Assembly (NCBI GenBank): GCA_044226625.1 | Contig: JBGAGQ010000082.1 | Span: forward strand, 1-23,335 | From: Thermoanaerobaculia bacterium | GTDB taxonomy: Bacteria > Acidobacteriota > Thermoanaerobaculia > Multivoradales > UBA5704 | DNA length: 23,335 nt | Direction: 5' to 3' | Shown: positions 6,064 through 21,385 of the stretch, one piece after another | How positions within the stretch are numbered: the stretch's first letter is position 1 | Layout of the letters: the number at the start of each line of letters is the position of its first letter | The notes under the pieces: model-generated | The model's database searches: none | What the model saw: only the letters and a program-made list of their open reading frames with translations | Told to the model about the DNA's origin: nothing | Position numbers and translations under genes: made by a program

Positions 6064-8202
6064 TCAGAGATACCCCAACGCCCTCAGCCGCTTCTCCGTC
6101 TCGGCATCGACCGTCTGCGTGGCCTGACCGTACAACGCGTGAAGCCGCGCGTTCTCGCGCGTCCAGGCCTCCAGCGCGGCGCGCAACTCCGCGACGAGGG
6201 CGGGTTTCGTTCCCGTTAGGTTTTCGGTCTCCCCCGGGTCTCTCGTGAGGTCGTAGAGCTCGACGCTTTCGGGCTTCGCGCGATGGAGGATCAGCACGTT
6301 TGCCCCACGGCGCACGGAGGCCAGCGGGACCGAGGCGTCGGTGTCTAGATCGTGGTGGAAAACCGTCGCGAAACCTTCGGCGAACCGGTCGCGATCGACG
6401 AACGCCGCGGGCTTCGCCGCGAAGTACGGCAGCAAGCTTTTCCCCTGGATCGGCGGGGCGTTCGGGGCGAAGGGGTCTCCGCCGGCCAACGCCACGAGGG
6501 TGGGCGTGACGTCGATCGAGCCGACCGGGGCTTCGACCTCCCTTCCGGCCGGGAGGCGCCCAGGACCCCAGAGGATCAGCGGGACGTGGAGCACCTCGTC
6601 GTAGAGCGTGTCGCCGTGGTCGAAGCCTCCGTGGTCGAACAGCTCCTCGCCGTGGTCGGAGGTGAGGAGCACGATCGTGTCGCGATCGAGGCCGGTGGAA
6701 CGGAGCCTCGCGATCAGGCGCGCGATGAAATCGTCGGTGTGGCGGATCTCGCCGTCGTAGCGCGCACGGAACGCCTCGACGTCGGAGGCAAGCGTTGGAA
6801 ACGATCCGTCGCGGAATCGGGCGAGGTCCGCCATTCCGAGCGTCACGCCGGCTCGGGCGTAGCCACGGCTTCCGGGGGGCACGAACAACGCGTCGTACGG
6901 CGGCGGCTGCCGGTAGGGTTGGTGGACCTGGTAGGTGTGGAGAAAGAGGAAGAACGGGCGATCGGAGGCATCGAAGGCGCGGTCGTTCTCGCCCGTCGCC
7001 TCTTTCGCGAGCCAGGCGAGCGCGAGCTTTTGGGTGCCCGAGTCCAGGTCGTCGTCTTCCTGAGCGACGTAGCGGTCGAAGCCCTGATCGAATCCGAAGC
7101 GCGCCGCGACCCATCCTCCCTCGGTGATCGCCGCGGTGCGATAGCCGAGCCGCCGAAGACGCTCGGCGAGGGTGAGCAGGCGCGGGGAGCCGCCGATCGC
7201 GAAGGTCGCGCTCGGCTCTTGGCGCCCGGCGAGTAGGGCGCGGTCGGGATTCACGCCATGCGCCGAGGGAGAGAGGCCGGTCATCATCGTCATGTGCGAC
7301 GGGAGCGTCCAGGCCGAGGCGGCGTAGGCACGCGAGAACCGAACGCCGTCGCGCGCCAGCGCATCGATCGCCGGGCTCGTCGGATGAGGGCCGCCGTAGC
7401 AGCCGAGCCGGTCGGCGCGCAGGGTATCGATCGAGATCAGGATCAGGTTCGGCCGCCGGGCCCGATCGGGGCGTGAAGTCGAAGCGGTCCGCAGCGTGGC
7501 GGGCCGCGCGTCGGACGAAGGCTCGGCGGAGCGTTCAAGCCGCGCAGCCGGCGGAGATTTGCGTGGCTCGTACAAACGATCGAACCGCGCGAGCGCCCGG
7601 TCGCGGGCGGCTGCGTCGCCGAGGCGGTCGCTGGCGTTGGCGAGCTGGTACCACCCCTCGGCGGCGCGCGGCTCGAGTGCGGTCGCTCGCTGGAGCTGGA
7701 GGCGCGCCTCCCGCGGCTTTCCGGTTTCGAGCAGCAGAAGCCCGAGCACGTAGCGCGGATAGGCGCCGGCACCAGGCAAACCGAGGGCGGTACGAAGCTC
7801 CCGTTCCGCCTCGGCGAAGCGATGTCGGCGACGGAGCGCGTCGCCGTACCAGGCGCGAAGCTCCGGATTCGTGGGCAGGCGGCTCACCCCCGCACGCGCG
7901 ACGGCGAGGACCTCGACGAGCTTTCCCGAGCGGACGAGCAGGCGGCTCAAACCCAGGTACGCCGGGGCGAGATCGGCGTTCGCGGCGTTCGCGGCGTTCG
8001 CGGCGTTCGAAGCGATCGCCGCGCGGTATTCGCGCTCGGCGGTCGCACGGGGATCGGCAGAAGAGTCGCTAGTCGAGTTCTCGCGCTCCTGGCGCTCGGC
8101 GGCGAGCGCCCGCTCGAAGTGGCGCCGCTCGGGCGGGGTACAGCCGGCGAGCAGAACAACGGCGAGCGAGAGCCTCACGGCGGACGAGGTGAAGGGAGGC
8201 AC
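6064..8202 (-). CDS. Lipoprotein with TPR repeats fused to a sulfatase-like (alkaline phosphatase superfamily) domain
   Basis: Lipobox LLAG-C and TPR-like helices. Sulfatase-like motifs: PNLILISIDTLRAD, WTLPSHMTMMTG, HTYQVHQPY, YDGEI, TSDHGEE...HG, ELYDL..DPGE..N, RLRALGY. Confidence 0.85.
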   Translation of the reverse strand: MPPFTSSAVRLSLAVVLLAGCTPPERRHFERALAAERQERENSTSDSSADPRATAEREYRAAIASNAANAANAANADLAPAYLGLSRLLVRSGKLVEVLAVARAGVSRLPTNPELRAWYGDALRRRHRFAEAERELRTALGLPGAGAYPRYVLGLLLLETGKPREARLQLQRATALEPRAAEGWYQLANASDRLGDAAARDRALARFDRLYEPRKSPPAARLERSAEPSSDARPATLRTASTSRPDRARRPNLILISIDTLRADRLGCYGGPHPTSPAIDALARDGVRFSRAYAASAWTLPSHMTMMTGLSPSAHGVNPDRALLAGRQEPSATFAIGGSPRLLTLAERLRRLGYRTAAITEGGWVAARFGFDQGFDRYVAQEDDDLDSGTQKLALAWLAKEATGENDRAFDASDRPFFLFLHTYQVHQPYRQPPPYDALFVPPGSRGYARAGVTLGMADLARFRDGSFPTLASDVEAFRARYDGEIRHTDDFIARLIARLRSTGLDRDTIVLLTSDHGEELFDHGGFDHGDTLYDEVLHVPLILWGPGRLPAGREVEAPVGSIDVTPTLVALAGGDPFAPNAPPIQGKSLLPYFAAKPAAFVDRDRFAEGFATVFHHDLDTDASVPLASVRRGANVLILHRAKPESVELYDLTRDPGETENLTGTKPALVAELRAALEAWTRENARLHALYGQATQTVDAETEKRLRALGYL
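7974..8009. repeat. In-frame 9-bp tandem repeat (CGGCGTTCG x4), encoding NAANAANAANA
   Basis: Four exact copies read directly from the sequence. Confidence 0.9.
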
Positions 8203-8217
8203 CGCCGCGTCCTCGCC

Positions 8218-10179
8218 TCAGCGCGGTGGCGGCGGCTCGCGCCGGAAGCCGGGGGGGAGACCCTCGGGATCGAGCGCGGGGGTCGGCTCGGTAGATTGCG
8301 CCGGGCCTTCTCCACGGAGCCAGCCGAGATCCGGCAGGTCGACCACGGCCCCGTTTGCGGGCGCGGCTGGCGCGGCGGCGGGGGCCTCCCCGGCAGCGAC
8401 GAGGCGCGGCGTGATCACGAACAGCAGCTCCTGCTGCTGGCGGCTCTTCTTGCGCCAGCGAAAGAGCGGCAGCTTGCCGAGGCCGGGGAGACGCGATTCC
8501 TCGAACCCCTCTTCGAAGCTCAGGAGACCGCCGAGCACGAGGCTCTCCCCTGCCGAGACGCGCGCCGTCGTCTGGACGCTCTGCACCTGGAAGCCGGGCA
8601 CGCCGCCGACCGCGAGCGTGGGCGACGGCCGGATGATGCTCGGCGCGACCTCGAGCGCGATCACTCCCGTTTCGTCGACCGTCGGCCGGATGTCCAGCCG
8701 GACGCCGAAGTCCTGAAACGCGAAGCCCTGCACGGAGGTCGACTGGGAGAGCGTGGTGATCGGGATCGGCACCTCGCCGCCGACCAAGACCGATGCCTCC
8801 TCGCCCGAGAGGGTGAGGACGTTCGGCTCCGAGACGGCGCGGGCGACGTTCTGGTCTTCGAGGAAATCAACCGCCGAGACGATCGAGAGCGTTCGGTCGA
8901 CGAAGCTTTGCACGAGGTTGCCGGCGACCGCCGAGACGTCGGCTATACCGCCGAGCTGGCGCGGCGGGCGCCCTTGCGGCCCGGGGAAGCTGCCGAGCGA
9001 GAAGTGGTCGCCGTCGACGCGGAAGTTGATCCCCGCCTTCTTCGCCCGCGCGCGGTCGATCTCCAGGACGCGGATCGACACCATCACCTGCGGCAGCTCG
9101 TCGACCTTGAGCAGCGAGAGCACCCGGCCGGATTCGCTGGTGATCGCCAGGCCCCGCGCGATCTGTCCGGCGAGGCCTCCGACCGGCCGGTCGGTCGCCG
9201 CGAGCGAGGCGCTGCCCGACGCGGGAGTGGCGGTGTTTCCGGGGAAGACCCGCGTCCGGCCGGAGCTCAAACCGCGGACCGGCGACTCGACTCGGACCCC
9301 CGCGTTGCCGAGCTGCCGCTCGGCGAGGATCACGGCGCGGGCGAGCGCCTGGGTGTTCTTGACCTGCCCTTCGAGGATGTAGGAGTCGCGCTCGGGGTTC
9401 GGCTCCGGACCGACCTGGATGCGCCGCAAGCGGATGCGCGGATCGATCGCGCCGAGCGCCTCGGTGAGCCAGAGGTCGGGCGCGGCGGTCGACGTCGGCG
9501 CGCGGATCAGGTTCACGACCTGCACCGCGCCGCCGCCCGAGGCCGCCGTTCCCTGCGCTTTGAGCATGGCGTTCGCAATCGACTCAGCGCGCTCCGCGGT
9601 CTCGCGGTCGGGCGCCTCGCCCGAGAGGACGACGCCCGAGCCGTCGACGCTCGACGAGATCACGATCCGCGGATCGAGGGCGGCGAGCGTCTTCCGGAGG
9701 AACGACAGATCGCGCTCGACCTCGACCTCGTAGCGCAGGCGGCGCCCTCCCGCGAGCCAGACGAACAGCGTGCTCTTGCCGGTGCGGAGCCCGGTGACCA
9801 GAACCTCGCGCCCGGAGACGACCTGGAGCCGCGCGAGCGCCTCGTCGGCGAGGGCGACCCGCTCGACGTCGAGGGACAGCGTGATCAAACGGCCGACGCC
9901 GATCGGCGCGCGGATCGAGCCCTGGCTTTCGACCGCGCCGAGATCGGTGGGGCGACCGGCCACGCTCAGCGGCCGATCGGGCGGGACCTCCTGCGGCCGG
10001 CTGGGGGCGGCCTGAGGGCCGACCGGCGCGGCCTTCGCGGGATCCGCGGGGTCCGCCGAGCCCTGCGCCGGATCCGCCGCGTTTTGCGGGCGGGTCGGGC
10101 GGGCGGCGAACAGGAAAAACGCTGCGCTCACCGCGAGCGCGAGGAACGATGAAGTCCAGATCGAGCGGCGATGGCTCAT
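8218..10179 (-). CDS. cpaC: Tad/Flp pilus secretin (CpaC/RcpA-like)
   Basis: Start reassigned to ATG 10179 (MSHRRSIW, signal peptide; ATGA overlap with cpaB). N domain VERVALAD...EVLVTG...GKSTLFVW and BON-like VVLSGE segments. Secretin core QVMVSIRVLE, EPNVLTLSGEEASVLVGGEVPIP, FGVRLDIRP, GESLVLGGLL, PGLGKLPLF, ELLFVITPRLV. Confidence 0.92.
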   Translation of the reverse strand: MSHRRSIWTSSFLALAVSAAFFLFAARPTRPQNAADPAQGSADPADPAKAAPVGPQAAPSRPQEVPPDRPLSVAGRPTDLGAVESQGSIRAPIGVGRLITLSLDVERVALADEALARLQVVSGREVLVTGLRTGKSTLFVWLAGGRRLRYEVEVERDLSFLRKTLAALDPRIVISSSVDGSGVVLSGEAPDRETAERAESIANAMLKAQGTAASGGGAVQVVNLIRAPTSTAAPDLWLTEALGAIDPRIRLRRIQVGPEPNPERDSYILEGQVKNTQALARAVILAERQLGNAGVRVESPVRGLSSGRTRVFPGNTATPASGSASLAATDRPVGGLAGQIARGLAITSESGRVLSLLKVDELPQVMVSIRVLEIDRARAKKAGINFRVDGDHFSLGSFPGPQGRPPRQLGGIADVSAVAGNLVQSFVDRTLSIVSAVDFLEDQNVARAVSEPNVLTLSGEEASVLVGGEVPIPITTLSQSTSVQGFAFQDFGVRLDIRPTVDETGVIALEVAPSIIRPSPTLAVGGVPGFQVQSVQTTARVSAGESLVLGGLLSFEEGFEESRLPGLGKLPLFRWRKKSRQQQELLFVITPRLVAAGEAPAAAPAAPANGAVVDLPDLGWLRGEGPAQSTEPTPALDPEGLPPGFRREPPPPR

Positions 10180-11015
10180 GACGGCGGGCCTCCCGCGACG
10201 GTGATCGTTTCGCGCCGGCCGCCGACGATGACCTCGACCTGGCCGACGCGCGGCATCGGCAGCTCGAGCACCTTGCCCTTTTCCACCTCGGACCGGCCGT
10301 GGAGGACGAGCGAGAGCGGCGCGCCCGCGGCTTGCGCTTCGGCGAGCGGCAGGGCTTCCCACGGGCGGACCGCGAGCAGCAACGGCGATTTCGTGGGGTT
10401 TTCTCCCTTGCCTCCGGAGGAGCTGGCGAGCGCCTCGGCGATCTGGCCTCCCAGGCCGTCGGACTTCTTCGCCGCGGGATCCGGCGGACGCTCCGAGACC
10501 CAGCCGACGAACATCGCGTCGTGGACGAGCGGCACCGCGCCCTGGCCGCCGCTCCGCAGCGGACCGAAGGCGACCACGTCGAACCGATCGCCGAAGCGGA
10601 GCTGCTCGACCAACTCGGAGAGCGGCAGGCTCGAGAGCGGCAGGAAGACGAGCACGCGGCCTTCCGGCAGGATGCCGGCGAGCCCCGGGCCTTGGTCGGG
10701 CGGCGCGAAATCGGCGCGGAAGAACGGCGTGCCCGCACGCTTGGCTCGCGCGAGCCGCTTGCCTTCGATCGCGCTCCGCTCGCGCAGCACCGTGCCGGGG
10801 ACCTCGCTCTCGCGTACCCGCACCGATTTGAGGCTGGCCTTGCCGATCTCGGTCCCCGGCGCGAGATCGCTCGCGGCCACCCAGACCTCGAGGTCGCCGC
10901 GGAAGCGCTGCACCTGTCGATAGAGCAGGATCACCACGAGGAGCACCGCCGCGACCAGCACGGCGATGCGCGCCCAAGGCTTCTCCGCCGCGTTTCGAAA
11001 GGTTTCTCTACGCAT
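10176..11015 (-). CDS. cpaB: Flp pilus assembly protein CpaB/RcpC-like (TM anchor + SAF domain)
   Basis: N-terminal TM helix, SAF motif VWVAASDLAPGTEI, LRFGDRFDVV and LSLVLH; lies between the pilins and the secretin. Confidence 0.8.
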   Translation of the reverse strand: MRRETFRNAAEKPWARIAVLVAAVLLVVILLYRQVQRFRGDLEVWVAASDLAPGTEIGKASLKSVRVRESEVPGTVLRERSAIEGKRLARAKRAGTPFFRADFAPPDQGPGLAGILPEGRVLVFLPLSSLPLSELVEQLRFGDRFDVVAFGPLRSGGQGAVPLVHDAMFVGWVSERPPDPAAKKSDGLGGQIAEALASSSGGKGENPTKSPLLLAVRPWEALPLAEAQAAGAPLSLVLHGRSEVEKGKVLELPMPRVGQVEVIVGGRRETITVAGGPPS

Positions 11016-11125
11016 GGGGAAGCCGGCAGTTTAGCGCAATGCCAGGAACTGCAAAGGCCCCGGCGGGGGCCGCGCCCCCGCCGGAGTCCAAAGTCGTCAA
11101 GCCCTGTCCAGCCCCAGCCACGAGG

Positions 11126-11488
11126 TTACGGTATGTCGCCTACGAGCTCGGGCGTGGGCGGGATGCACATCCGTACACCACAGCGTCCGCCTTGATCGCA
11201 AAAGTCTTGAGTGTCGGCAAAGGCGCTTCCCGACCAGGTCGCGACGTCGGCCGGATGGACCGGGTCGGTGGGATGGCCTACCGCCATGCCGCTCAGGGAG
11301 TAGCTCTGGTTGAGCGAGCCGATCGCGCCGCCCAGATCGCCGATCTCGCCGATGAGCTTGGCGCAGATCGAAGACCAGCCGATCGCGACGCAACAGAGCA
11401 TCAGGGTCAGGATGAAAACGAGCTCGGCGCTCGCGACGAACCCGGCCTGCCTCTGGCTCTTGCGCTCGGTGCTACCGCGTTGGATCAC
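11126..11488 (-). CDS. Non-canonical Flp-like prepilin, copy 2
   Basis: Basic leader ending QAG, then FVASAEL and a hydrophobic helix. Strong RBS GGAAAGGAG before the GTG. Lies immediately upstream of cpaB. Confidence 0.8.
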   Translation of the reverse strand: MIQRGSTERKSQRQAGFVASAELVFILTLMLCCVAIGWSSICAKLIGEIGDLGGAIGSLNQSYSLSGMAVGHPTDPVHPADVATWSGSAFADTQDFCDQGGRCGVRMCIPPTPELVGDIP

Positions 11489-11552
11489 CGGTTTGCTCTC
11501 CTTTCCGCTTCGGGTCGAAGACGTTTCTCCGGCTCCGAGGCAACGGTCCCTC

Positions 11553-11584
11553 GAAACCGGAAAGGCCGGCTCGGCGAGCCGGCC
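11553..11584 (-). terminator. Putative intrinsic terminator or processing hairpin between the two pilin genes
   Basis: Inverted repeat GGCCGGCTCG/CGAGCCGGCC (11564-11584) followed on the minus strand by TTTCCGGTTTC; the U-tract is imperfect. Confidence 0.5.
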
Positions 11585-11602
11585 CGAGGAGCGCGAACCG
11601 GC

Positions 11603-11947
11603 TTACGGCAGCGGCGGACCTTCCGGCGTCGGCGGGATGCACATGCGGACGCCGCAGCGACCGCCCTGATCGCAGAAGTCCTGGGTGTCGGCGAATGCGC
11701 TGCCCGACCAGGTCGCGATGTCGGTCGGATGGACGGGATCCGTGGGATGCCCGACCGCCATGCCGCTCAGGCTGTAGCTCTGGTTGAGCGATCCGATCGC
11801 TCCGCCGAGATCGCCGATCTCGCCGATGATCTTGGCGCAGATCGAAGACCAGCCGATCGCCACGCAGCAGAGCATGATGGTCAGGATGAAGATGAGCTCC
11901 GCGCTGACGATGAACCCGGCTTGCCCTTTCTTTCCTCTACGTACCAT
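11603..11947 (-). CDS. Non-canonical Flp-like prepilin, copy 1
   Basis: MVRRGKKGQAG|FIVSAELIFILTIML... is a class III-like signal; strong RBS GGAAAGGAG. Differs from copy 2 by 7 substitutions in the mature part before a divergent tail. Confidence 0.8.
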   Translation of the reverse strand: MVRRGKKGQAGFIVSAELIFILTIMLCCVAIGWSSICAKIIGEIGDLGGAIGSLNQSYSLSGMAVGHPTDPVHPTDIATWSGSAFADTQDFCDQGGRCGVRMCIPPTPEGPPLP

Positions 11948-12190
11948 GGTTTAAGCTCCTTTCCCCGCCCTCGGGGGGTTCAATGGTTGCGACGTCCTCT
12001 CGCCAAAGAACCGACAGCGCGCCCCTTTCCGCTCCCGGCGGCCAACCCGGAAGGAAAGCTTTTTTTCGATCGAGAAGCGCTGTCCGTTGGACAGGTCTAA
12101 TGTAGGAAATACGGCAGGGCAAAGGTATCGGCGATCGTCTGATTCTCGACGGCGAAAAAACTGATTTCTCCCGGCCGGAGCTCCGTCTTC

Positions 12191-12844
12191 TCAAGCGTGG
12201 GACAGATCGGTCAGACCTTCGCGGATCGCGTACTTGGTGAGGCCGGCGACCGAGTGGATGCCGAGCTTCTCCATCAGGTGTTCGCGGTGGGTGCCGACCG
12301 TCTTGATGCTCAGGAACAGACGGTCGGCGATCTCCTTGGTCGAATGCCCCTCGGCGATCAATTGGAGGATCTCGCGCTCGCGCTCGGTGAGCGGCTCGAC
12401 CGTCGAGGTGACGCTCGGGCGATCGGCCTTGAGCGCCCGCACCACGGCATGGCCGACGCGCGGGCAGATGTAGACCTCGCCGACGATCACGTGGCGGATC
12501 GCGCGCACGAGGCTCTCGTGCGAGTAATCCTTGAGCAGGTAGCCGGCGGCGTTCGCCTCGAGCATCGCCTTGACGAACTGCGGCTCGGCATGCGCCGACA
12601 AACAGAGCACCTTCGCGTCCGGGCGCCGGGCCGTGATCTGACGGGTCGCGTCGATGCCGTTCAAGCCGGGCATCGACACGTCCATCACCACCACGTCGGG
12701 ATGCAGCGCGTGCGATTTCTCCACGGCCTCCCGGCCGTCGCGCGCCGTGCCGACGACCTCGAAATCGGGCTCCTTCGCGAGCAGAGCGGCGAGGCCGTCG
12801 AGCAGGATTTCGTGATCGTCGGCGAGCAGGATGCGTGTTTTCAT
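12191..12844 (-). CDS. NarL/FixJ-family response regulator (REC + LuxR HTH)
   Basis: Start ATG 12844: [65 protein letters not shown]. Confidence 0.95.
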
Positions 12845-13626
12845 GAGGGATCGCTCCGTATCGGCACGAGGGCCGAGACGCGGCTGCCGGCGCCGGACGA
12901 GGAATCGATCTCCAGGCGCCCGCCGAAGGAACCGAGCAGCTGACGGACGCCCGGGAGGCCCAGGCCGCCGAGGCACGGCTCGGCGAGCGCCGGGTCGAAA
13001 CCCACGCCGTCGTCCTCGACGCAGACGCGGACCCGATCTTGCTCCCGCGCGACCGAGACGCCGATCGAGCGGGCGCGCGCGTGCTTCGCCGCGTTCACCA
13101 GCAGCTCTTCGGCCACCCGGTAGAGGATGGTCTCGGCGTCTTCGCCGAGCGGCTTGGGCTCGCCGTCGCTCCGCCAGACGAAGCGCAGGCCCTGATGGCC
13201 GGCGATCCGCTCGCCGAGCCCCTGGAGGGCGGGCTCGAGGCCCAGCTCGCACAGCGCGAGCGACGACAGCTCGAAGGTGAGGGAACGGGTCTCCTCCACC
13301 GCGCGCCCGAGCAACTCAGCCACCTGCGAGAGAGCGGCCCGGCGCTCGTCGCTCCGCTCGCCCGCGATCAGCTGGGCGAGCTGCAGCCGGGCGAGCGCGA
13401 GCGGATGCCCGACCACGTCGTGGAGCCCGCGGGCGATCCGGCGCCGCTCCCTCTCTTGGACCAGCGCGAGCTGGCCGACGGACCCGAGACGACCGTGGCT
13501 CGCCATGCCTCGTACGTCACACCTCTCGAAGCTCGTTGTTTCGGATCGAAGCATGCTAGCACGGCCTCTATCCGCGGACGGCGGGGAGGGCCGCGGGGGC
13601 CCGAGGACCTCCGCCTCTTCCTTCAT
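12841..13626 (-). CDS. NarQ/UhpB-type (HisKA_3) histidine kinase without an evident sensor domain
   Basis: Start ATG 13626 with RBS AAGGAGG and ATGA overlap. H-box ERRRIARGLHD, N-box EELLVNAAKHA, G1 EDDGVGFD, G2 GLGL. No TM helix. Confidence 0.9.
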   Translation of the reverse strand: MKEEAEVLGPPRPSPPSADRGRASMLRSETTSFERCDVRGMASHGRLGSVGQLALVQERERRRIARGLHDVVGHPLALARLQLAQLIAGERSDERRAALSQVAELLGRAVEETRSLTFELSSLALCELGLEPALQGLGERIAGHQGLRFVWRSDGEPKPLGEDAETILYRVAEELLVNAAKHARARSIGVSVAREQDRVRVCVEDDGVGFDPALAEPCLGGLGLPGVRQLLGSFGGRLEIDSSSGAGSRVSALVPIRSDPS

Positions 13627-14870
13627 CCCGCCCTCCTTCCGCTCGCACCTTGGGGCAGCCAATCGGCGGGCTCCGTGCCGCGCCACTGGGCGAGGGCGCG
13701 GCCGGCGTGCGAAAGGAACGAGAAGTCGCGCTGGATCTCCTCGGCGCTCATGCCGTCGACCGTGCGCACGAGCCAGCCCGCGGCCCGGGCGCGGACTTCG
13801 AGCGGCGGCAGGATCTCGCGCGGCGCGACGGACCACCATTCGAGCGCGTGCCCGGTGGCGATCAGGCGATCGCTCAGCCGGTCTCCGTCCGCCTCGGACG
13901 GCGCGCCCCCGCGCGGCATCGCCGTCGGCCACTCGCCGTTCCAGAAGCCGTCCGGGTGCTGGTGCGCTACCAGCAGTCCGGTCGCGGCCCGGAGGTAGGC
14001 GACGACCTCCTTGCGCACCGCGGGCGACAGGATCCGCGGCCGGCCGTCGGCCGCCATGCGGTCGTCGATGCGCAGGAAGACCACCAGGGCGTGCAAGCGG
14101 TGGTTACCCCAGCAGACGCCGCGCGGCAGCTCCTCGCGCTCGATCCGCCGGGCCAGGCGATCGAACGTCATCTCCTGCCCCTCGACCGTCCGCCACCGGG
14201 CGACCGGAGGTAGGTAGAGCGCGTAGGCGAGGGCCGACCATTCGTACTCCGCCTGGTTCAGATGGAACGATCGGAGCGAGCCCACGAGCACCGAGCGGAG
14301 GGTCGTGCGACGGCCGGGGGTTACGAGCGGCTGGTCGAGCGACAGACCCGCTTCGGCGAGCGATGCGAGCGTGTGGTCGACGTGGGGGCTCGAGACGACC
14401 CCTTCGAGCGAGCGGACGGCGACCGCCGGCTGCGTGGGGGCGCCCGCGGCGTCGTCGAGCAGGAGCGGCGGCTGGTGCGGTCCGTAGGTGCCGAGAAAGC
14501 GCCAGTTGTCGGTGAGCAAGCGCAGCAGGTCGCGCCCCGAAACGTACGGTGCGGGGAGCTCGGCGTCCGGACCCCATTCGCGCAGGGCGTGCTCGACGTT
14601 GCCGATCACCGTGCCCTTCCCCGCGTCGCGCAAGGCGAGGCGCGGCAGCACGCGCCGAAGATCGGCGTCCGAGACGACGGCGGGCTCGTCGTAGAGCGGG
14701 CGCACGTCGTACGGCTCGGCGCGCAACGGCGGCGGGGAGGGAGGGAGATCCGCCGTCGTCGCGGCCCGTGCCTGCCAGGCGCACCAGCCGAGCGCCGCGA
14801 GCAGGAGAGTCGCCTCGATTGCGAATGAAAGGGACCGGGGGGTCCGGGACGATCGCGGGTAGGTGCTCAT
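13623..14870 (-). CDS. Uncharacterised exported or anchored helical protein, possibly an alpha/alpha toroid (terpene cyclase/prenyltransferase-like QW motif)
   Basis: Start ATG 14870 (ATGA overlap); hydrophobic N-terminal segment ending ARA. Motifs HVDH, EYEW, GVCWGNHRL, HQHPDGFW (QxxDGxW), ATGHALEW and LSHAGRAL. The CDS is well supported; the fold is an inference. Confidence 0.65.
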   Translation of the reverse strand: MSTYPRSSRTPRSLSFAIEATLLLAALGWCAWQARAATTADLPPSPPPLRAEPYDVRPLYDEPAVVSDADLRRVLPRLALRDAGKGTVIGNVEHALREWGPDAELPAPYVSGRDLLRLLTDNWRFLGTYGPHQPPLLLDDAAGAPTQPAVAVRSLEGVVSSPHVDHTLASLAEAGLSLDQPLVTPGRRTTLRSVLVGSLRSFHLNQAEYEWSALAYALYLPPVARWRTVEGQEMTFDRLARRIEREELPRGVCWGNHRLHALVVFLRIDDRMAADGRPRILSPAVRKEVVAYLRAATGLLVAHQHPDGFWNGEWPTAMPRGGAPSEADGDRLSDRLIATGHALEWWSVAPREILPPLEVRARAAGWLVRTVDGMSAEEIQRDFSFLSHAGRALAQWRGTEPADWLPQGASGRRAG

Positions 14871-16720
14871 CGTCCACCGCCGGCGGCAAGCGCCGTCTGT
14901 CCGGCGGGCGTTGCGAGCGGTCGCTCGGACGTCCGTCCCGCTGGCTTGGAAATCCTTTCGAACACCAGCGCCCGGTCGTCCTCGTATGCGATCCGCCAGT
15001 CGTCGTCGTAGCGCAGCGATTGGATCTGGCCGTGCTGGGTCGCGCGGTCGAAGATCGCGGTCCGCACGCCGTAACGGCCGAGCACGCGCTGCCAATCGGC
15101 GGCGCCGCCCGCGACGCGCAGGTAGTCCTGCCAGGCGAGCGGCGGCAGCGTTTCGACCCGGGTGCCGGCGAAGGGCCGCAACGTCTGCGCTCCTCGGGGA
15201 CCTTCGCGCACGAGCCAATCGGCCCAGGCGGCCGGCAGGAAGGTGAGCCCGCTCGGCGGCTGGGCGCGAAGATGGTCGGCGAGGGCGAACGGCGCCGAGG
15301 AAGAGAGCACCGCCTCGCGCGGGCGGACCTCGCGGCGCAGGAGGGCGGCCCCGACCGGAGAGAGGGCGAACGCCGCCCAGGCGAGGGCCGCGGCGAGCAG
15401 GACGCCCCGCCAGCTGGGGCGCCGCAGCGGCTCCAGCCGCTCGCGCCAGCCGGCGAGGAGGCGGCTCGAGCGGAGCGGCCTGAACGGCTCGACGAACGAG
15501 GCATCGTTGCTTCGACGGGCCGCGAGCGAAGGGAGGAGCGCGTAGACCAAGAGGGGCGCTACCCCCGCGAGCAGGCCCGCATAGGCGAGCGCCGCCGCGC
15601 CGAAGCCGGCGAGCCAGAGAGCATGCTGCGGCCGGAGAGTGGCCCCCTCCCGCCGAGCGGAAAAGCTCAAGGAAAGGAACGCAACGCAGCCGAGAAGCGC
15701 GAGCGCCCAACCGCCAGGGCTTTCGACCGATAGCGCGCGGAACGCCGGAAGGTCGGCTAGGTTGGCGCTACGGGGCAGCCGAAGGACGTAGCGCCAAAGC
15801 TCGATGCCGTACGGGGAGAACAAGGTACCCGCGGCGGCGAACAGCGTGACGCGGAGAAAGCGCCGAAGCGGACGATCCGCGGCGACCGCGGCGACCGCGG
15901 CGACCGCTGAGAACGGGCGCGCACCCACCCTCCGGGCGCGACCGAGCGCCTCGATCAGACGCCCCAGGGTCGCGAGGCTGAGCGCGGCGAGGCCGACGGC
16001 GAACGAGACGTGAAGATTCGCCCACAGTGCGAAGAGGGCGGCCCAGCCGGCGAGCGCTACCGCTTCGGCCCATCCGTTCGCTGAGGCCTTGCGCTCGAAG
16101 GAATCCGCTTCGGACGGCACCCCCTCCCCCGCTTCCAGCCGCTCGATTCGCACCAAGAAGAGCGCGAGGCAGAGGGCGCCGAAGATCTGCGGGAGGAAGA
16201 CCGCGTAGGGTCCCGTGGGAGAGAGCGAGAGCGCGAGGACGGCGACCGCGCCGAGGAGCCCCAGGGGACCGAAGGCCCGGCCGGACAGGGCGCGCGAGAA
16301 CGCCGTCCAGAGCACGCCCAGCGTCGCCAACCGAAGGAAGGCGAACAGCGTTGCGAGCCAGGCGTAGCCGGCTCCCGGCCGCACCGCGTCCCCCGCCCGC
16401 GCGACGGCGGCGAGGATCGCCTCGGAGCCCCAGGAGGCGTCGAGCAGGGGCATCCCTTCCGCGAGCGGCAGCGTCGGATCCGAGGCAGGGAGCGCCCGGT
16501 GCTCGACGATCCAATCGCCGTAGACCAGTTGGCCGGCGAGGCCCGCCATTTCGAGCGGCGCGTAGGCGAGGAGGAGGAACGCGGCGGCCACCAAGGCGAG
16601 CCCCGCGACCGCCACGGCGGACAGGGCCCAGCGCGTAGTGCCTCCCCTCGCCTCGGCGTCTTCCGGAGTCAGGGAGTGGGAGAGCGGACCGGCGGGCGGG
16701 CTATCGGCGGGCAGGATCAT
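14867..16720 (-). CDS. Polytopic membrane protein, GT-C-fold glycosyltransferase-like
   Basis: About 10 hydrophobic segments followed by a soluble C-terminal domain. Motifs G.WI......P..DP, SW, LWANLH.SF..G, SPYG and YEDD.A.VF. RBS GAGGTG. Confidence 0.65.
   Translation of the reverse strand: MILPADSPPAGPLSHSLTPEDAEARGGTTRWALSAVAVAGLALVAAAFLLLAYAPLEMAGLAGQLVYGDWIVEHRALPASDPTLPLAEGMPLLDASWGSEAILAAVARAGDAVRPGAGYAWLATLFAFLRLATLGVLWTAFSRALSGRAFGPLGLLGAVAVLALSLSPTGPYAVFLPQIFGALCLALFLVRIERLEAGEGVPSEADSFERKASANGWAEAVALAGWAALFALWANLHVSFAVGLAALSLATLGRLIEALGRARRVGARPFSAVAAVAAVAADRPLRRFLRVTLFAAAGTLFSPYGIELWRYVLRLPRSANLADLPAFRALSVESPGGWALALLGCVAFLSLSFSARREGATLRPQHALWLAGFGAAALAYAGLLAGVAPLLVYALLPSLAARRSNDASFVEPFRPLRSSRLLAGWRERLEPLRRPSWRGVLLAAALAWAAFALSPVGAALLRREVRPREAVLSSSAPFALADHLRAQPPSGLTFLPAAWADWLVREGPRGAQTLRPFAGTRVETLPPLAWQDYLRVAGGAADWQRVLGRYGVRTAIFDRATQHGQIQSLRYDDDWRIAYEDDRALVFERISKPAGRTSERPLATPAGQTALAAGGGR
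15877..15907. repeat. In-frame 9-bp tandem repeat (CCGCGGCGA x3 plus partial), encoding AVAAVAAVAA
   Basis: Read directly from the sequence. Confidence 0.85.
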
Positions 16721-16756
16721 GGCGACACCTCGTGGAGCGTTCTGATGCGGATCTCT

Positions 16757-17659
16757 TCAGCCGAGGACGGCGCGCACCTCTTCCAACAGCTGAAGGATCG
16801 CCGGGAAGAAAGTGAGCAGGAAGAACAAGGGAAATCCGGCGAGCATCACCGGGAAAGTCACTTTGACCGAGGCGGCGTTGATCCGCTTGAGCGCAGTCTC
16901 CCGGCGTTTGGTCCAGAGCAGCTCGGCCTGGGAGGTGAGCGTGGAGCGGACCGGCGTTCCGAGGCGTGCGCCCAGCTCCAGCGCGGCGGCGAGCGCGCGC
17001 AGATCGGCCACGCCCGTCCGCGCGGCGAGGGCGCGGAACGCCGTCGTCGGGTCCTGCCCCGCGTCGAGCTCTTGGCCCAGGATCGCCACCTCGCGGGCGA
17101 GCGGATGGGAGGGTGCGAGACCCTCGCGCCCGGCGCGTCGGAACGCGCGCTCCAGCGACAGCCCCGAATGGAGGAAGGCGACCATCAGGTCGACGAAGAA
17201 CGAGAGCGCCTGGGCGACCTTCGCCCGCCGCCGACGCCGCACACCGAGCAGCCAGAGGTCGGGAAGGACGAAACCGAGGATCGCCGGCACGGCCAACACG
17301 ACGGCGGATCGCGAGCCCCCCATTCCGCTCAATCGGCCCCAAGGCATCAGTATCTCGATCGCGAGCGAGGGCAGGAGCAACGCGAGGACGACGCGGGAGA
17401 CGACGAACAGGCCGAACAGCGACCCGGGATCGAAGCCCGCCTGGCGCGCCGCCTTCGGGAAGTAGCCCGAGATCGCCGTCGTCGCGCGTTTCCAACCCGA
17501 GGCGATCGAGGTCCCGTCGGATCCGCCGCGTACGGGAAGGGTGTTCTGGGCGCCGACCAGCCATGCCGCTCCGGGGCCGGCGGGGCGGCTTCGCAGGAGC
17601 CAGATCACGGCGGCGAGCGCCCCGGCGGCGAGTAGCAGATCCAGGCCGGATCCGCTCAC
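16757..17659 (-). CDS. tadC: TadC, type II secretion system F-family platform protein
   Basis: Start GTG 17659 (GTGA overlap with tadB). LGFVLPDLWL..RRRRR, DLMVAFLHSGLSLE.A, AFRALAART, GTPVRSTL, SVKVTFPV...FP. Confidence 0.88.
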   Translation of the reverse strand: MSGSGLDLLLAAGALAAVIWLLRSRPAGPGAAWLVGAQNTLPVRGGSDGTSIASGWKRATTAISGYFPKAARQAGFDPGSLFGLFVVSRVVLALLLPSLAIEILMPWGRLSGMGGSRSAVVLAVPAILGFVLPDLWLLGVRRRRRAKVAQALSFFVDLMVAFLHSGLSLERAFRRAGREGLAPSHPLAREVAILGQELDAGQDPTTAFRALAARTGVADLRALAAALELGARLGTPVRSTLTSQAELLWTKRRETALKRINAASVKVTFPVMLAGFPLFFLLTFFPAILQLLEEVRAVLG

Positions 17660-18591
17660 AGCTCGATCCTCAAAATGCGCCCGAGCCACATCCAGGCGGC
17701 GATCTGGAGCAGTACCGCGACGGTGAGCAGCGACGGCCCGTACGGATGCTCGATCAGGCGCCGGATGAGATCGGGCAGCTTCCAGAGGAAGATCGGAATC
17801 ACCCCGTACGGGAGTAGCGCCACGGCGACCGCCGTGACCCGCGCGCCGCCGAGCTGGGAGAGCAGGCGCAGGCGCACCTGGATGCGATCGCGGACGATCC
17901 GGCCGACCGATTCGAGCAGCGGCGCGAGGTCGCCTCCGACCTCCCACTTCGCGATCAGGCTCTGGGCGAAAAGGCGCACCCCTTCGGCGTCGTACCCCGC
18001 GAGGAGGCGCGAGAGGGCGCGGCGGATCGGCATGCCGAGCGCGAGTCGGTGGGCCACCTCCGCGAACTCGCGGCGGATCGCGCCGGTCGACGCCTCGGCG
18101 ACGCTCGCGAACGCTTGGGTCGGGTTCTCCCCCGCCTGAAGCGAGCCGACCATGAAGCCGAGCGCCTCGCCCAGCCGCGCCTCGAAACGCCGGGCGCGCC
18201 ACCGGCCGAGCGAGCCGAGCCACGCCCACGGGAGGTAGAGGGCGAGGCCCGCGGCGGCGAACGCCGCAAGCGGCACGGCGGGGAGCAGCGCCGCGAGGCC
18301 CGAGGCCGCCGCCACCGCTCCGAGCACGCCGGCCGCGACGAAGGTCGCCGGACCGATCGGGAGCCCCGCCGCGCGGAGCCGACGGTCGAGAGCGCCGCGC
18401 GCGGTTCGTCCAGGCTCTGGATCGCCGCCGCCAGACGAGAGGGGATCGCCTCCACCCGGCCGTTCGGCGAGGCGGGCGAGCAGCCGCCGGTCGCGCCGCT
18501 CGGCGAGCCCGGCGCGCAGGTAGTCCGCCGCGGCCGCGGCGACCACGAGCGCGGCGGCGAGCAGCATCAGCCCCTCGGTCCACGGGGGCAT
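17656..18591 (-). CDS. tadB: TadB, type II secretion system F-family platform protein
   Basis: Start ATG 18591 or GTG 18594. RRFEARLGEALGFMVGSLQAG, EF......LG, EVGGDLA..LE......RDR, followed by C-terminal TM helices. Confidence 0.9.
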   Translation of the reverse strand: MPPWTEGLMLLAAALVVAAAAADYLRAGLAERRDRRLLARLAERPGGGDPLSSGGGDPEPGRTARGALDRRLRAAGLPIGPATFVAAGVLGAVAAASGLAALLPAVPLAAFAAAGLALYLPWAWLGSLGRWRARRFEARLGEALGFMVGSLQAGENPTQAFASVAEASTGAIRREFAEVAHRLALGMPIRRALSRLLAGYDAEGVRLFAQSLIAKWEVGGDLAPLLESVGRIVRDRIQVRLRLLSQLGGARVTAVAVALLPYGVIPIFLWKLPDLIRRLIEHPYGPSLLTVAVLLQIAAWMWLGRILRIEL

Positions 18592-20087
18592 CACGGCGCG
18601 GCGCTCTCCGGCTCTTCCGCCGTGGCATCCAACAGCGATTCTTCGAAGCCGGGCAGCCCGGCCAGGCGCGGCAGGAAGGCGGGCCGCAGGCCGGTCGCCA
18701 CGTGGCGACCAGCACCGCCGCCTTCGAACCGGAAGAGCTCGCGCGTGAGCAGGCGGCCCTCGTCGATCCGCACCTCGCGCACGGAGGTCACGCGACGGCT
18801 GCCGTCGCGCGCGCGGTTCACCTGGATCACCAGGTCGAACGCCGCCCCCAACAGCTCGCGGATCGCCGCGCTCGGCAGCTCGAAGCCGCCCATCTGGACC
18901 AGGTTCTCGAGGCGGCGGAGGGCGTCCTCCGGCGTATTCGCGTGGACGGTCGTGAGGCTCCCCTCGTGCCCCGTGTTCATCGCCTGCAGCATGTCGAACG
19001 CCTCGGGGCCGCGGACCTCGCCGACCAGGATGCGGTCGGGGCGCATGCGCAGAGCGTTCTTGACCAGCGTGCGCAGGGAGACCTCCCCCTTGCCCTCGAT
19101 GTTCGGCAGCCGCGCTTCGAGCGAAACCTTGTGGGGGTGCGGAAAGCGCAGCTCCACGGTCTCCTCGATCGTGATCACCCGCTCGCTCGGCGGGATCAGC
19201 GCGGCGAGCACGTTGAGCAGGGTCGTCTTGCCGGACGCGGTGCCGCCGGAGATCAGGATGTTCAACCGCGCCCGCACGGCGGCCGCGAGGAAGCGCGAGA
19301 GGACGGGCGAAATCGTGCCCCCTCGGGCGAGCTCGTCGAGTTGGAAGGGCGCCGGGCGCGCGCGGCGGATCGAGACCACCGGCGCGGGGGCGAGCGGCGG
19401 GATCAACGCGTGGAGGCGGCTGCCATCCGGCAGGCGCACGTCGACGCAGGGAGAGGCCTCGTCGAGGTGCCGTCCCTGCGAGCCGACGAGGCGGCCGAGA
19501 ATCCGCACGAGATGGGCGCCGTCGTCGAAACGGACGCGCGTCCGCTCCAGCCGTCCGAAGCGGTCGACCCAGACCTCGTCCGGGCCGTTGACCAAGATGT
19601 CGGAGACCGTCGGATCGGAAAAGAGCGGCTCGAGCGGCCCGAGGCCGCGGATCTCGGCGACCACCCGATCGAGCAAGCGTGAGCGCTCGCCCGCGTCGAG
19701 CGGCGCGAGCCGCCCCGAAGCCTCCGACTCCTCGATGAGACGCCGGACCCGGCGGCGCGCTTCGCGCGAGCCGATCTGGGCCGTGGCGGCTCCGTTCCGC
19801 GCGTCGACGCTCGCGAGGAACAGCTCGAGGATTCGACGTCGCGGGAGCTGCCGCGAGCGGTCCGTCTCCGCTTCGGAGCCCTCGCCGCCGAGAACGCCGA
19901 GCACGCCGAGGGTCCTCTCGCCGCGCTCGGCCCGATCGATCGACTCGCCTCTCTGGACCCCCGAGATCCGCCGCGCGGCCGAGAGGCTTCGCCGCCGCCA
20001 GCCGGACCGCAGCCGCACGCGGTAGTCCTCGCCAGCCTCCAACGAGGCGTCCGCGCCGGCCGAATCGAACGGGTTTCCCGCGCTCAT
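18591..20087 (-). CDS. cpaF: CpaF/TadA pilus assembly ATPase
   Basis: GLGPLEPL..DPTVSDILVNG, Walker A SGGTASGKTT, TIEETVEL, NALRMRPDRILVGEVRG, AMNTGHEGSLTTVHAN. Confidence 0.96.
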   Translation of the reverse strand: MSAGNPFDSAGADASLEAGEDYRVRLRSGWRRRSLSAARRISGVQRGESIDRAERGERTLGVLGVLGGEGSEAETDRSRQLPRRRILELFLASVDARNGAATAQIGSREARRRVRRLIEESEASGRLAPLDAGERSRLLDRVVAEIRGLGPLEPLFSDPTVSDILVNGPDEVWVDRFGRLERTRVRFDDGAHLVRILGRLVGSQGRHLDEASPCVDVRLPDGSRLHALIPPLAPAPVVSIRRARPAPFQLDELARGGTISPVLSRFLAAAVRARLNILISGGTASGKTTLLNVLAALIPPSERVITIEETVELRFPHPHKVSLEARLPNIEGKGEVSLRTLVKNALRMRPDRILVGEVRGPEAFDMLQAMNTGHEGSLTTVHANTPEDALRRLENLVQMGGFELPSAAIRELLGAAFDLVIQVNRARDGSRRVTSVREVRIDEGRLLTRELFRFEGGGAGRHVATGLRPAFLPRLAGLPGFEESLLDATAEEPESAAP

Positions 20088-21385
20088 CGAGCTCCCCGCG
20101 CCTCCGGCACGGCCATCTCCGCCCTGCCGGCGAGCAGCAGGTCGACGAGCCGCTGAACGCCGACCGAGAACGGAGCCTTCGGTTGGGCGAGCACCATCGG
20201 CGATCCGGTGGCACCCGCCGCGCGCACCGCCTCGGCCTCGGGCAGGACGGCGTCGATCGGGCGCCCTAGATGCTCCGAGACCGTCCGCTCCGACAGGAGC
20301 CCGGGGCCCGAGCCCTGGCGGTTGAGCACCACCCGGAAACGGTCGCGGGCGAACCCCTCCTCGGCGAGGAGATCGAGCCAGACCGCGCTTGCGACCACCG
20401 TCGGCGCGACCGCCTCGGTGACCAGCACGATCGACTCGGCGAGGTCGAGCACGGCGAGGCTCCAGAGATCGAGCGCGCTCGGGGTATCCACGATCACGAG
20501 GCCGAAGCGGCGACGGAGCGCGACGAGCGCCGCTCCGAGATCCTCCGGCGCGACGCCCGCCGCGGCGCGTGGATCGCGCGGCGCGGCGAGCAGGGCGAGC
20601 CCGCTACGGTCATCGTACGCGAGATAGCTCGCGAGAGACTCCAGCCGATCGAGCCGGCCGAGCTGGCCTAGGTCGGTCGCGAGATCCCCGAGGTCGGCCT
20701 CCGGCTTGACGCCCAGGAGCGCCGCGCCGGAGCCGAACGTGCAGGCCGCGTCGCAGAGGACGACCCCTCGTCCGATCCGCCCGGAGGCCGCGAGCGCGAG
20801 CGCGGCGTTCGCGGCGAGCGTGGAGGTCCCTACGCCCCCCTTGTGGCCGACGAACGCGACCAGCCGCCCTTCCATTGGCCGCCGGCTGCCGGAGGGGCCG
20901 TCGAGCCCCCGCACTCCCCCTTCCAACGTCCCACCCCATTCCCCTTCCAGCGCCGCGGCCAGCTCGTCCTCCGCCGCGGGCAGCGCCACGAAGTCGCCGC
21001 ACCCGGCGCGGGCGGCGCCGCGAAACAGATCCCCGTCGCCCTCCTTCGCCTCGAGCGGGCTGAAGAGAGCGACGATCCGCCGCCCCGCGCGCCGTCCCGC
21101 GCGCGCCAGCTCGAGCGCGAGATCCCGCTCCGCGCCGAGGTCGAGCAGGACCACGTGCGGATCGAGCCGCGGCATGCGCTCGAACGCGGCCAGCGGCCCC
21201 GGGCAGTCATAGATCGAAAGCGGTCCGGGAGCGATCCGCCGGAGCGACGATTCGATCGCCGCGCGGACCTGCGCGTCGGGATGGATCACCAGAACGCGCA
21301 GCGCTCGAGCATCCTCGCTCCGTGGCGCGCCGCCCGGAAGGTCCCGCGGCGCGCCGAAATTCGCAGGGTTCCTCGAACCGATCAC
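20084..21385 (-). CDS. cpaE: CpaE/TadZ (receiver-like domain + MinD/ParA ATPase)
   Basis: GTG start with RBS GAGGAG. Receiver-like N-terminus (RVLVI...PHVVLLDL), deviant Walker A KGGVGTST, VIVDTP, VVLNR. Confidence 0.9.
   Translation of the reverse strand: MIGSRNPANFGAPRDLPGGAPRSEDARALRVLVIHPDAQVRAAIESSLRRIAPGPLSIYDCPGPLAAFERMPRLDPHVVLLDLGAERDLALELARAGRRAGRRIVALFSPLEAKEGDGDLFRGAARAGCGDFVALPAAEDELAAALEGEWGGTLEGGVRGLDGPSGSRRPMEGRLVAFVGHKGGVGTSTLAANAALALAASGRIGRGVVLCDAACTFGSGAALLGVKPEADLGDLATDLGQLGRLDRLESLASYLAYDDRSGLALLAAPRDPRAAAGVAPEDLGAALVALRRRFGLVIVDTPSALDLWSLAVLDLAESIVLVTEAVAPTVVASAVWLDLLAEEGFARDRFRVVLNRQGSGPGLLSERTVSEHLGRPIDAVLPEAEAVRAAGATGSPMVLAQPKAPFSVGVQRLVDLLLAGRAEMAVPEARGAR

Follow-up and report, generated by a model that had tools for sequence, protein, structure and literature searches.

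A Tad pilus locus of a Thermoanaerobaculia bacterium with an embedded GT-C/QW gene pair, a candidate pilin glycosylation module shared with Planctomycetota

Dedicated glycosylation of pilins has been described in type IVa pili and in filaments of archaea; archaeal AglB N-glycosylates archaellins and type IV pilins, and PptA of Neisseria is a pilin phospho-form transferase. The present study concerns a Tad (type IVc) pilus locus of a Thermoanaerobaculia bacterium (phylum Acidobacteriota), located on contig JBGAGQ010000082.1 of assembly GCA_044226625.1, within a stretch of 23,335 nucleotides that was analyzed as a whole and is termed here the window. Among its pilus genes, the locus harbors a gene for a GT-C-like membrane protein and, directly downstream, a gene for a partner protein designated QW. 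Three groups of described systems serve for comparison: the pilA-tfpW-tfpX cluster of Pseudomonas aeruginosa is the nearest known arrangement, STT3, AglB and PglB are the nearest structures, and GtrB, ArnC or CsbB with a GT-C partner represents the nearest pathway logic.

In the group IV pilA-tfpW-tfpX cluster of P. aeruginosa, the GT-C enzyme TfpW adds D-arabinofuranose to the pilin (bioRxiv 10.1101/2020.04.19.049825). The likeness to our locus consists of genes for a GT-C enzyme and for a second, accessory product that immediately adjoin the major pilin gene, and of a common layout, in which loop 1 and a large C-terminal domain are periplasmic and the lipid-carrier donor is made in the cytoplasm. 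The P. aeruginosa cluster serves type IVa pili, whereas the locus studied here belongs to the Tad (type IVc) class, with Flp-like pilins and a partner of 415 amino acids (aa) predicted to form an (alpha/alpha)6 barrel. The nearest solved structures to the window GT-C-like protein are STT3 and AglB rather than the Emb/Aft arabinosyltransferases. We take TfpX to be unlike QW. From STT3, AglB and PglB, in turn, the system differs in that the GT-C-like protein has no sequence match to the STT3 Pfam family, the candidate Asn of the pilin is not invariant, and a neighboring GT2 glycosyltransferase in other genomes suggests monophosphate-linked sugars.

As in GtrA/GtrB/Gtr, ArnC/ArnT, CsbB/YfhO and Streptococcus mutans PgfS with its membrane partners, a GtrB/ArnC-class GT2 occurs in one operon with a polytopic GT-C-fold transferase. 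The acceptors of these three-component systems are O-antigen, lipid A, teichoic acids and adhesins; here the linked candidate is the pilin. To our knowledge, an (alpha/alpha)6 partner is not part of such systems, and no GtrA-like flippase was identified in the present analysis. The three-component logic and the definition of GT-C are taken from PMC5836110. The full-text literature searched, which did not extend to supplementary gene lists, held no link of Tad/Flp pili to a dedicated GT-C enzyme and no link to these planctomycetal genes, and the players behind planctomycetal pili are still called unknown in a 2025 review (PMC12673574). On the reading that we consider best, and hold with modest confidence, the novelty would lie in a dedicated pilin glycosylation that is coupled to a Tad apparatus and involves a partner protein and a pilin family that are both new.

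The distribution of the GT-C/QW pair was assessed across phyla. A word-based protein search returned 242 relatives of QW at about 50% identity and 10 relatives of the GT-C-like protein, the latter number being an understatement of the family, since such a search needs shared words. An alignment-based scan for QW, with one genome per species, identified 142 encoding loci, of which the best 80 were analyzed: 71 are from Planctomycetota (37 Planctomycetales, 21 Pirellulales and 13 without order), five are from Acidobacteriota and four are unlabelled. In 78 of them, QW is immediately preceded by a full-length GT-C-like gene, and the other two are contigs that end at QW. In 47 of the 80 loci, and in 31 of the 51 that extend for at least 3 kb on both sides, a pilin-family gene with the orientation of QW lies no more than 4 kb from it. 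At the level of whole genomes, the pilin profile matched 14 of 201 sampled Planctomycetota (up to 17 copies per genome), and the same 14 genomes matched QW strongly (E<=1e-99), together with one weak partial QW match elsewhere. An earlier note on this DNA, made from the sequence alone, had proposed that the pilin family, the GT-C-like gene and QW should be sought together across genomes; by adjacency, by nearby pilins and by genome, they are found together.

In three of the 78 loci (L042, L052 and L080), the reading frame of the GT-C-like gene is broken into two or three; frameshifts, assembly errors or decay are possible causes.

The neighbors of the pair were enumerated by clustering all open reading frames that flank the 80 loci. 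Tad components are frequent among them: CpaF and TadB (29 loci each), TadC (28), RcpC/CpaB (26), TadE-like pseudopilins (24), an A24 prepilin peptidase (16) and a TadG-like protein (8). A sigma-54 activator is encoded in 27 loci, a GT2 glycosyltransferase in 18 and an S-adenosylmethionine (SAM) methyltransferase in nine. Two arrangements are typical. In one, a TadC-TadB-CpaF-TadG-RcpC-TadE-peptidase cluster is divergent from a pilin-GT-C-QW cluster; the other runs GT-C, QW, three pilins, RcpC, CpaF, TadB and TadC, in some cases with a GT2 at its head.

Outside the family of the window, the pilin profile matched none of 150 sampled Acidobacteriota genomes. CpaF-type ATPases are present in 22 of 100 Acidobacteriota genomes and canonical Flp pilins in four of 61; since the pilin is absent from the sampled genomes and CpaF is present, it is the pilin/GT-C/QW set, and not the Tad core, that is special. 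All six Acidobacteriota sequences of a QW tree group in a single clade (support 99) inside a well-supported, otherwise planctomycetal group of 30 rows; the tree was a quick search with a midpoint root and alone gives no direction of transfer. Taken together, the tree and the distribution favor a transfer of the module from Planctomycetota to this Acidobacteriota lineage, a direction that we infer from sequence comparison. The CpaF identities, 47-52% to other Acidobacteriota and 45-54% to Planctomycetota, do not point to either phylum as the origin of the Tad core.

In 15 of the 80 loci, the GT2 flanks the GT-C/QW pair on the same strand. This neighbor is a full-length relative of GtrB sll0501 (E 4.9e-58), ArnC (3e-33) and DPM synthase (2e-14); its best NCBIfam match is PgfS in all five cases tested, each below the curated cut-off. 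Enzymes of the GtrB/ArnC class charge polyprenyl phosphate with a sugar that a GT-C transferase then uses in the periplasm (PMC5836110), and by analogy the adjoining GT2 suggests a monophosphate-linked sugar donor. A SAM methyltransferase (Methyltransf_23/11) also adjoins the pair in nine loci, always with a GT2; it directly follows QW in several of these loci (L039, L044, L071, L072, L085, L089 and L094 are the others of the nine) and lies upstream with the GT2 in L062 and L097. Such a neighbor could point to a methylated sugar.

The GT-C-like protein contains at least nine hydrophobic segments. Its AlphaFold model is of good quality (predicted local distance difference test, pLDDT, 87.1; predicted template modelling score, pTM, 0.87), and the 34 best matches of a Foldseek search of PDB, 20 of which are at E<=1e-3, consisted entirely of GT-C glycosyltransferases (AftA, AglB, ALG12, DPY19, STT3, ArnT, AftD and PglB). 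On the strength of the model, the protein has a GT-C fold closest to the STT3/AglB oligosaccharyltransferases, with the corresponding predicted layout of a polytopic membrane domain, its first periplasmic loop being long, followed by a C-terminal globular domain; the earlier call of a GT-C-like protein is thus upheld at the level of the fold. A comparison by hhalign with a PMT_2 alignment built from the clade's own genomes gave 43% (P 2.4e-4) in the first-loop region, where three unrelated membrane families used as controls gave P 0.11-0.71 and a TadB/TadC positive control 99%.

Named families were not reached by sequence. Pfam and NCBIfam assigned no family to the GT-C-like protein, QW or either pilin of the window, and profile searches of PDB sequences assigned none to the GT-C-like or QW protein. 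None of 35 GT-C-like members matched any curated GT-C family (PMT_2, STT3, Dpy19 etc.) in Pfam at E<=1, and a genome-wide PMT_2 search found 12 other genes, the window GT-C-like gene not being among them. The GT-C-like profile matched 27,258 representative clusters at E<=1e-3 and 3,182 at E<=1e-30, with no bridge to a named family among the closest 150 clusters listed. By sequence comparison, this is a large GT-C superfamily outside Pfam coverage, no tested member of which reaches a Pfam model. Conserved across the 35 members are an invariant W-A-N motif and, in the C-terminal domain, W499 (97%), D501 (91%) and W502 (97%); W499-x-D501-W502 may correspond to the STT3 WWDYG motif. In loop 1, position 81 is acidic in 31 of 35 members, and position 60 is D/E in 26 of 35 and Gly in the window, such that no acid is invariant.

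The QW model (pLDDT 90.7) consists of one N-terminal membrane helix and an (alpha/alpha)6 barrel. Foldseek gave no match at E<=1e-3; the structural neighbors lie on a smooth gradient of squalene cyclases, cobalamin carriers, GH88, epimerases and thioester domains. Look-ups of homologs P0015 and P0007 in the ESM Atlas provided leads only (the GT-C clan, and GH88, of the GH105/GH88 unsaturated uronyl hydrolases, at TM 0.54), and 20 QW family members matched no Pfam family at E<=1. Many His, Asp, Glu and Trp residues and one Cys are invariant, a pattern that suggests an active or sugar-binding site. A predicted complex of the GT-C-like protein and QW scored 0.55, compared to 0.00 for the best of three controls, with at least 77% of contacts agreeing between runs and a partner pLDDT of at least 83. 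Among 80 solved complexes, 58 reached the 0.55 mark, as did two of 110 mismatched pairs, and scores that reached it without exceeding 0.60 were obtained by seven of the solved complexes and by both passing mismatches. The prediction thus lends weak support to binding between the two proteins.

The features of the pilin family were derived from 77 members in 43 loci. A short leader, basic or of the form 'WNDExG', ends in an invariant Gly and is followed by a mature N-terminus of the pattern (F/A)-x-x-S-x-E, with Ser at +4 and Glu at +6, and by a hydrophobic helix. The C-terminal domain of about 60 residues contains an invariant Q (N/D-Q-S-Y), a Gly, two Asp and two Cys residues (D-x-C-D ... C). 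Canonical Flp pilins of the same phylum, by comparison, have Glu at +5 and end soon after the helix. The two window pilins contain six Cys residues, four of them extra, and a 12-residue insertion; their description as Cys-rich in the earlier note is therefore apt for this lineage, but not for the family, in which only two Cys residues are invariant. The family does not match Pfam Flp_Fap (G/xxxxEY, with Glu at +5), which finds nothing in the whole genome, and hhalign of the pilin profile against five canonical Flp pilins (P 0.0036) was no better than the control (0.0063). In planctomycetal members, the 'WNDExG' leader resembles that of Flp pilins, and one Gimesia copy is annotated by NCBI as 'Flp family type IVb pilin', next to one annotated as 'hypothetical'. 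In a biofilm metatranscriptome, contigs of 100% identity covered only the two pilin genes of the 6.9-kb stretch compared, a hint of pilin expression, given that contigs from an RNA library cannot rank expression and that such a library can contain DNA.

Several planctomycetal genomes (G188, G226, G246, G263 and others) carry many pilin copies, often in tandem arrays far from GT-C/QW and some with in-frame stops.

The reading that we favor, by a modest balance of probability, is a dedicated periplasmic glycosylation of the pilin by the GT-C/QW module of a Tad pilus locus. It starts from observed gene content, linkage and co-occurrence, and from two predicted folds. A GtrB/ArnC-class GT2, with its gene next to the pair in some genomes and at another place in that of the window, would load a sugar on polyprenyl phosphate at the cytoplasmic face, and the lipid-linked sugar would then be flipped across the membrane. 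In the periplasm the GT-C enzyme, if catalytic and probably in complex with QW, would transfer the sugar to the globular domain of the pilin, as the putative acceptor, before or during assembly. In the lineage of the window, the kinase/regulator pair would control expression, and the product of the last gene would act as a TadD/PilW-like secretin pilotin with an extra phosphoesterase-type domain. Of the proposal in the earlier note that the pilins are decorated outside the cytoplasm by three dedicated enzymes, decoration as such gains from the GT-C fold, the linkage and the flanking GT2, with both the acceptor and the modification presumed, whereas the trio of enzymes is not supported.

Several observations qualify this reading. 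The window itself encodes no GT2; homologs are located elsewhere in the genome, the best GtrB-like gene beside an ordinary PMT_2 gene. The GT-C-like gene is the least conserved of the locus, with 55% identity to one ortholog versus 60-94% for the other genes. Its product deviates at 14 of 76 family-conserved columns, versus two to nine in four orthologs; it alone among these orthologs has Leu in place of Glu293, and Gly occupies position 60 across its clade. Because several conserved residues are lost, the activity of the window GT-C is uncertain: the frame is intact, and judging from the sequence the activity may be altered or lost. Finally, kinship makes the planctomycetal genomes non-independent, and the agreement of 14 out of 14 therefore overstates its statistical weight; the move of the whole pilin/GT-C/QW set between phyla is the more independent evidence.

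The strongest of the alternatives, which we nevertheless regard as unlikely, is that GT-C/QW is a real glycosylation module with a non-pilin acceptor, such as an envelope protein, a surface glycan or a lipid, and that its proximity to Tad genes reflects one co-regulated surface programme. Such an acceptor would account for the 14 of 80 loci that possess a GT2 and no pilin within 10 kb, often with the methyltransferase (9/80) and the sigma-54 activator (27/80), and for genome G191, in which the pilin copies lie megabases from the pair; moreover, a GT-C-like superfamily of this size (27,258 clusters) cannot be pilin-specific throughout. The same-strand order pilin-GT-C-QW or GT-C-QW-pilin in 47 loci is at odds with it, as are the genome-level match of the pilin in 14 of 14 and the passage of the module between phyla together with the pilin. 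In addition, L054 and L055, whose QW proteins are near-identical sisters, are distinguished solely by what comes next, a GT2 or pilins.

It is less likely still that the pair forms a non-catalytic assembly or anchoring part, e.g., a chaperone or platform for the pilin that uses the GT-C fold as scaffold and QW as periplasmic adaptor. The lack of an invariant loop-1 acid would fit such a role, as would the window protein, which lacks D/E60, W62, H64 and E293 and yet retains an open frame of 617 aa. Planctomycetal loci, too, lack a nearby secretin and CpaE (cpaC in 5/80, cpaE in 5/80) and would thus need other parts, and the weak complex prediction agrees with a structural association. However, a non-catalytic role hardly accounts for the GtrB-class donor synthase that shares an operon with the pair in 15 of 80 loci, and the many invariant His, Asp, Glu, Cys and Trp residues of QW are typical of an active or sugar-binding site.

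A more specific proposal, to which we accord a similarly low probability, holds that an STT3/AglB-like oligosaccharyltransferase with its (alpha/alpha)6 subunit N-glycosylates the pilin at N-Q-S in the archaeal style, that the pilins form the planctomycetal crateriform fibres, and that the module was transferred horizontally to one Acidobacteriota lineage. The candidate site varies, being N-Q-S/T in about 44 of 77 pilins and D-Q-S/T in about 11, such that the Asn is not invariant.

The last gene of the locus encodes a lipobox (Cys21) followed by a tetratricopeptide repeat (TPR) region that weakly matches the PilW pilotin model (8.6e-7); the resemblance of this lipoprotein-TPR part to PilW/TadD pilotins explains the place of the gene after the secretin. 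In its sulfatase-fold domain, aligned to 7stt, a T-L-P-S-H motif (Thr299) occupies the C/S-x-P-x-R position, and therefore the protein is not a formylglycine sulfatase; this motif and the SDHGEE motif are invariant in its orthologs. The best matches are arylsulfatase-like, with weak NCBIfam matches to EptA/MCR-type phosphoethanolamine transferases (E ~1e-7). Presumably, the Thr nucleophile indicates phosphoester chemistry, as in the phosphotransferases and phosphodiesterases of the alkaline-phosphatase superfamily. With Neisseria PptA and EptA/MCR the protein shares the sulfatase fold of that superfamily and a Thr nucleophile; unlike these polytopic membrane enzymes, it is a lipoprotein with TPR repeats, kept within one genus.

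Beyond the window, the sulfatase-fold gene and the kinase/regulator pair accompany the locus only in four same-genus genomes. Since they are confined to the genus, they are lineage-specific additions outside the conserved module; a sigma-54 activator takes the place of the two-component system in other loci. Matches to 'sulfatase' do occur in 14 of the 80 loci, including the four of the same genus; those outside the genus (22-33% identity, in either orientation) appear to be unrelated sulfatases. The enzyme trio of the earlier note accordingly finds no support, its third member being confined to the genus of the window and devoid of the sulfatase motif. That GT-C, QW and the sulfatase-like protein jointly decorate the pilin, including a phospho-form modification, is thus very improbable: the Thr at the nucleophile position with intact SDHGEE-type metal-ligand motifs (which we take to be as in phosphotransferases and phosphodiesterases), the EptA/MCR-type matches and the place of the gene at the operon end 15 bp after cpaC speak for it, but the gene is absent from the second Acidobacteriota genus (in the 10 kb fetched) and from the planctomycetal module, and its PilW/TadD-like part already explains its position.

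With canonical Tad/Cpa loci (Caulobacter cpa, Aggregatibacter tad), the pilus machinery of the window shares CpaE/TadZ, CpaF/TadA, TadB, TadC, CpaB/RcpC, CpaC/RcpA and a TPR lipoprotein. The CpaF/TadA ATPase is accompanied by two T2SSF proteins (TadB and TadC), and CpaE/TadZ, RcpC/CpaB and the RcpA/CpaC secretin were recognized with Pfam and NCBIfam models; among the 10 T2SSE genes of the genome, cpaF of the window is the only CpaF-like one by score. Unlike the canonical loci, the pilin has no Flp_Fap match and its conserved Glu is at +6 after the Gly, not +5; inside the locus lie the GT-C/QW pair and a two-component system; and the TPR lipoprotein continues into an enzyme domain. The prepilin peptidase TadV/CpaA is also absent from the locus, the single A24 peptidase of the genome being on another contig, and TadE (PF07811) gave no match in the 97.9%-complete genome (6.6 Mb in 133 contigs; G+C of the window about 70%), such that TadE/F is not detectable. 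On the reading favored here, the locus encodes a Tad (type IVc) machine for a distinct pilin, which is Flp-like but longer and has a C-terminal domain of the disulfide type, and it carries an embedded two-gene module. The earlier description of a Tad-type locus with an accessory module inside it is confirmed by the domain matches and the conserved gene order.

The locus comprises 13 co-oriented genes that follow one another head to tail along the minus strand between 21385 and 6064 (Table 1). All junctions were read, and the single locus with its overlaps and gaps is as had been described. ATGA overlaps join cpaE to cpaF, the GT-C-like gene to QW, QW to the kinase gene, the kinase gene to the regulator gene, and cpaB to cpaC; tadB and tadC overlap by GTGA, and cpaF and tadB share one base (TGATG). 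Gaps of 36 bp and 15 bp separate tadC from the GT-C-like gene and cpaC from the last gene, respectively, and strong GGAG ribosome-binding sites precede both pilin genes. Between 5900 and 22300, one promoter-like site was found, upstream of cpaE (mean of 0.2 in shuffles); within the locus, terminator-like and promoter-like sites were no better than in shuffles.

Table 1 Genes and candidate promoter of the Tad locus, in window coordinates
Feature	Position	Strand	Basis
Candidate sigma-70-like promoter, TTCACA-17-TATAGT	21421..21449	-	Consensus match only; 36 bp upstream of cpaE
CpaE/TadZ-type ParA/MinD ATPase, 433 aa	20084..21385	-	AAA_31 E 3.3e-6 (at cut-off), CbiA 5.6e-5, TIGR03815 CpaE_hom_Actino 3.5e-16 (below cut-off)
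CpaF/TadA secretion ATPase, 498 aa	18591..20087	-	Pfam T2SSE E 1.1e-57
TadB platform protein, 311 aa	17656..18591	-	Pfam T2SSF E 2.8e-15
TadC platform protein, 300 aa	16757..17659	-	Pfam T2SSF E 1.8e-12
Predicted GT-C-fold membrane protein, glycosyltransferase-like, STT3/AglB-like layout (membrane + C-terminal periplasmic domain), 617 aa	14867..16720	-	No Pfam/NCBIfam family
'QW' protein, predicted N-terminal membrane anchor + periplasmic (alpha/alpha)6 barrel, 415 aa	13623..14870	-	No family
Soluble HisKA_3 histidine kinase (HisKA_3 + HATPase_c), 261 aa	12841..13626	-	Pfam/NCBIfam; neither a membrane nor a sensor domain recognized
NarL/LuxR-type response regulator, 217 aa	12191..12844	-	Response_reg 1.4e-27, GerE 2e-20
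Pilin 1, 114 aa; Flp-like leader ending in Gly, mature FIVSAEL..., C-terminal domain with NQSY, GH, DFCD...C	11603..11947	-	Family alignment
Pilin 2, 120 aa	11126..11488	-	90% identical paralog of pilin 1
CpaB/RcpC, 279 aa	10176..11015	-	SAF 8.2e-9; TIGR03177 pilus_cpaB 1e-13 (below cut-off)
CpaC/RcpA secretin, 653 aa	8218..10179	-	Secretin 1.7e-34, T2SS-T3SS_pil_N 7e-13, BON 1.2e-4
Lipoprotein (Cys21) + TPR region (PilW/TadD-like) + sulfatase-fold domain, 712 aa	6064..8202	-	Sulfatase 4.4e-51, Phosphodiest 8.4e-16, type_IV_pilW 8.6e-7 (residues 14-214)

Downstream of the locus, after 156 bp, a gene on the minus strand (2827-5907) codes for a STAND-like NTPase of 1026 aa with TPR repeats (weak AAA_16/TPR matches); the end of the locus was set at 6064 because this gene is not conserved beside it in relatives. 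Two flanking genes outside the locus are on the opposite strand, one for an ECF-type (extracytoplasmic function) sigma factor (Sigma70_r2/r4_2; 1136-2122, plus strand) and one for a protein with BNR/Sortilin-Vps10-like repeats (22209-23333, plus strand). The 823-bp intergenic region upstream of cpaE contains a 30-nt inverted repeat (21786-21815 and 21948-21977), the arms of which are 87% complementary and 132 nt apart.

The arrangement was compared among relatives by mapping the window proteins onto 20-kb stretches of their genomes (with a reach of 10 kb for the second genus). The GT-C-like query matched seven of 41 related genomes, its own included: four are other species of the genus, out of seven such species, one belongs to a second genus and one match is weak. 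The full 13-gene order is kept in the four other species, the last gene being cut by the end of the stretch in two of them, and within its stretch the second Acidobacteriota genus has the half from cpaE to QW only; because of this recurrence, the arrangement is not due to chance. The same-genus loci differ by an extra regulator in two genomes and by a 3.9-kb insertion between pilin and cpaB in three (L020, L021 and L022).

In L020 the insertion (13403-17045) encodes a secreted protein of 301 aa without family and a Peptidase_C25 protein of 932 aa (gingipain-type, 4.5e-82), both of which are absent from the window. A secreted protein of 317 aa is encoded between tadC and the GT-C-like gene in L023; its N-terminal 'LDW' stretch resembles that of the 301-aa protein.

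Three families previously annotated as 'hypothetical', namely the pilin, the GT-C enzyme and its (alpha/alpha)6 partner, are brought together here as one conserved, Tad-linked module of Planctomycetia and of one Acidobacteriota lineage. A GT-C superfamily outside Pfam, with sequence clusters in the tens of thousands, thereby receives a fold and a likely role. For the planctomycetal pili, the module provides concrete candidate genes, and its carriers include culturable strains of Gimesia and Pirellula.

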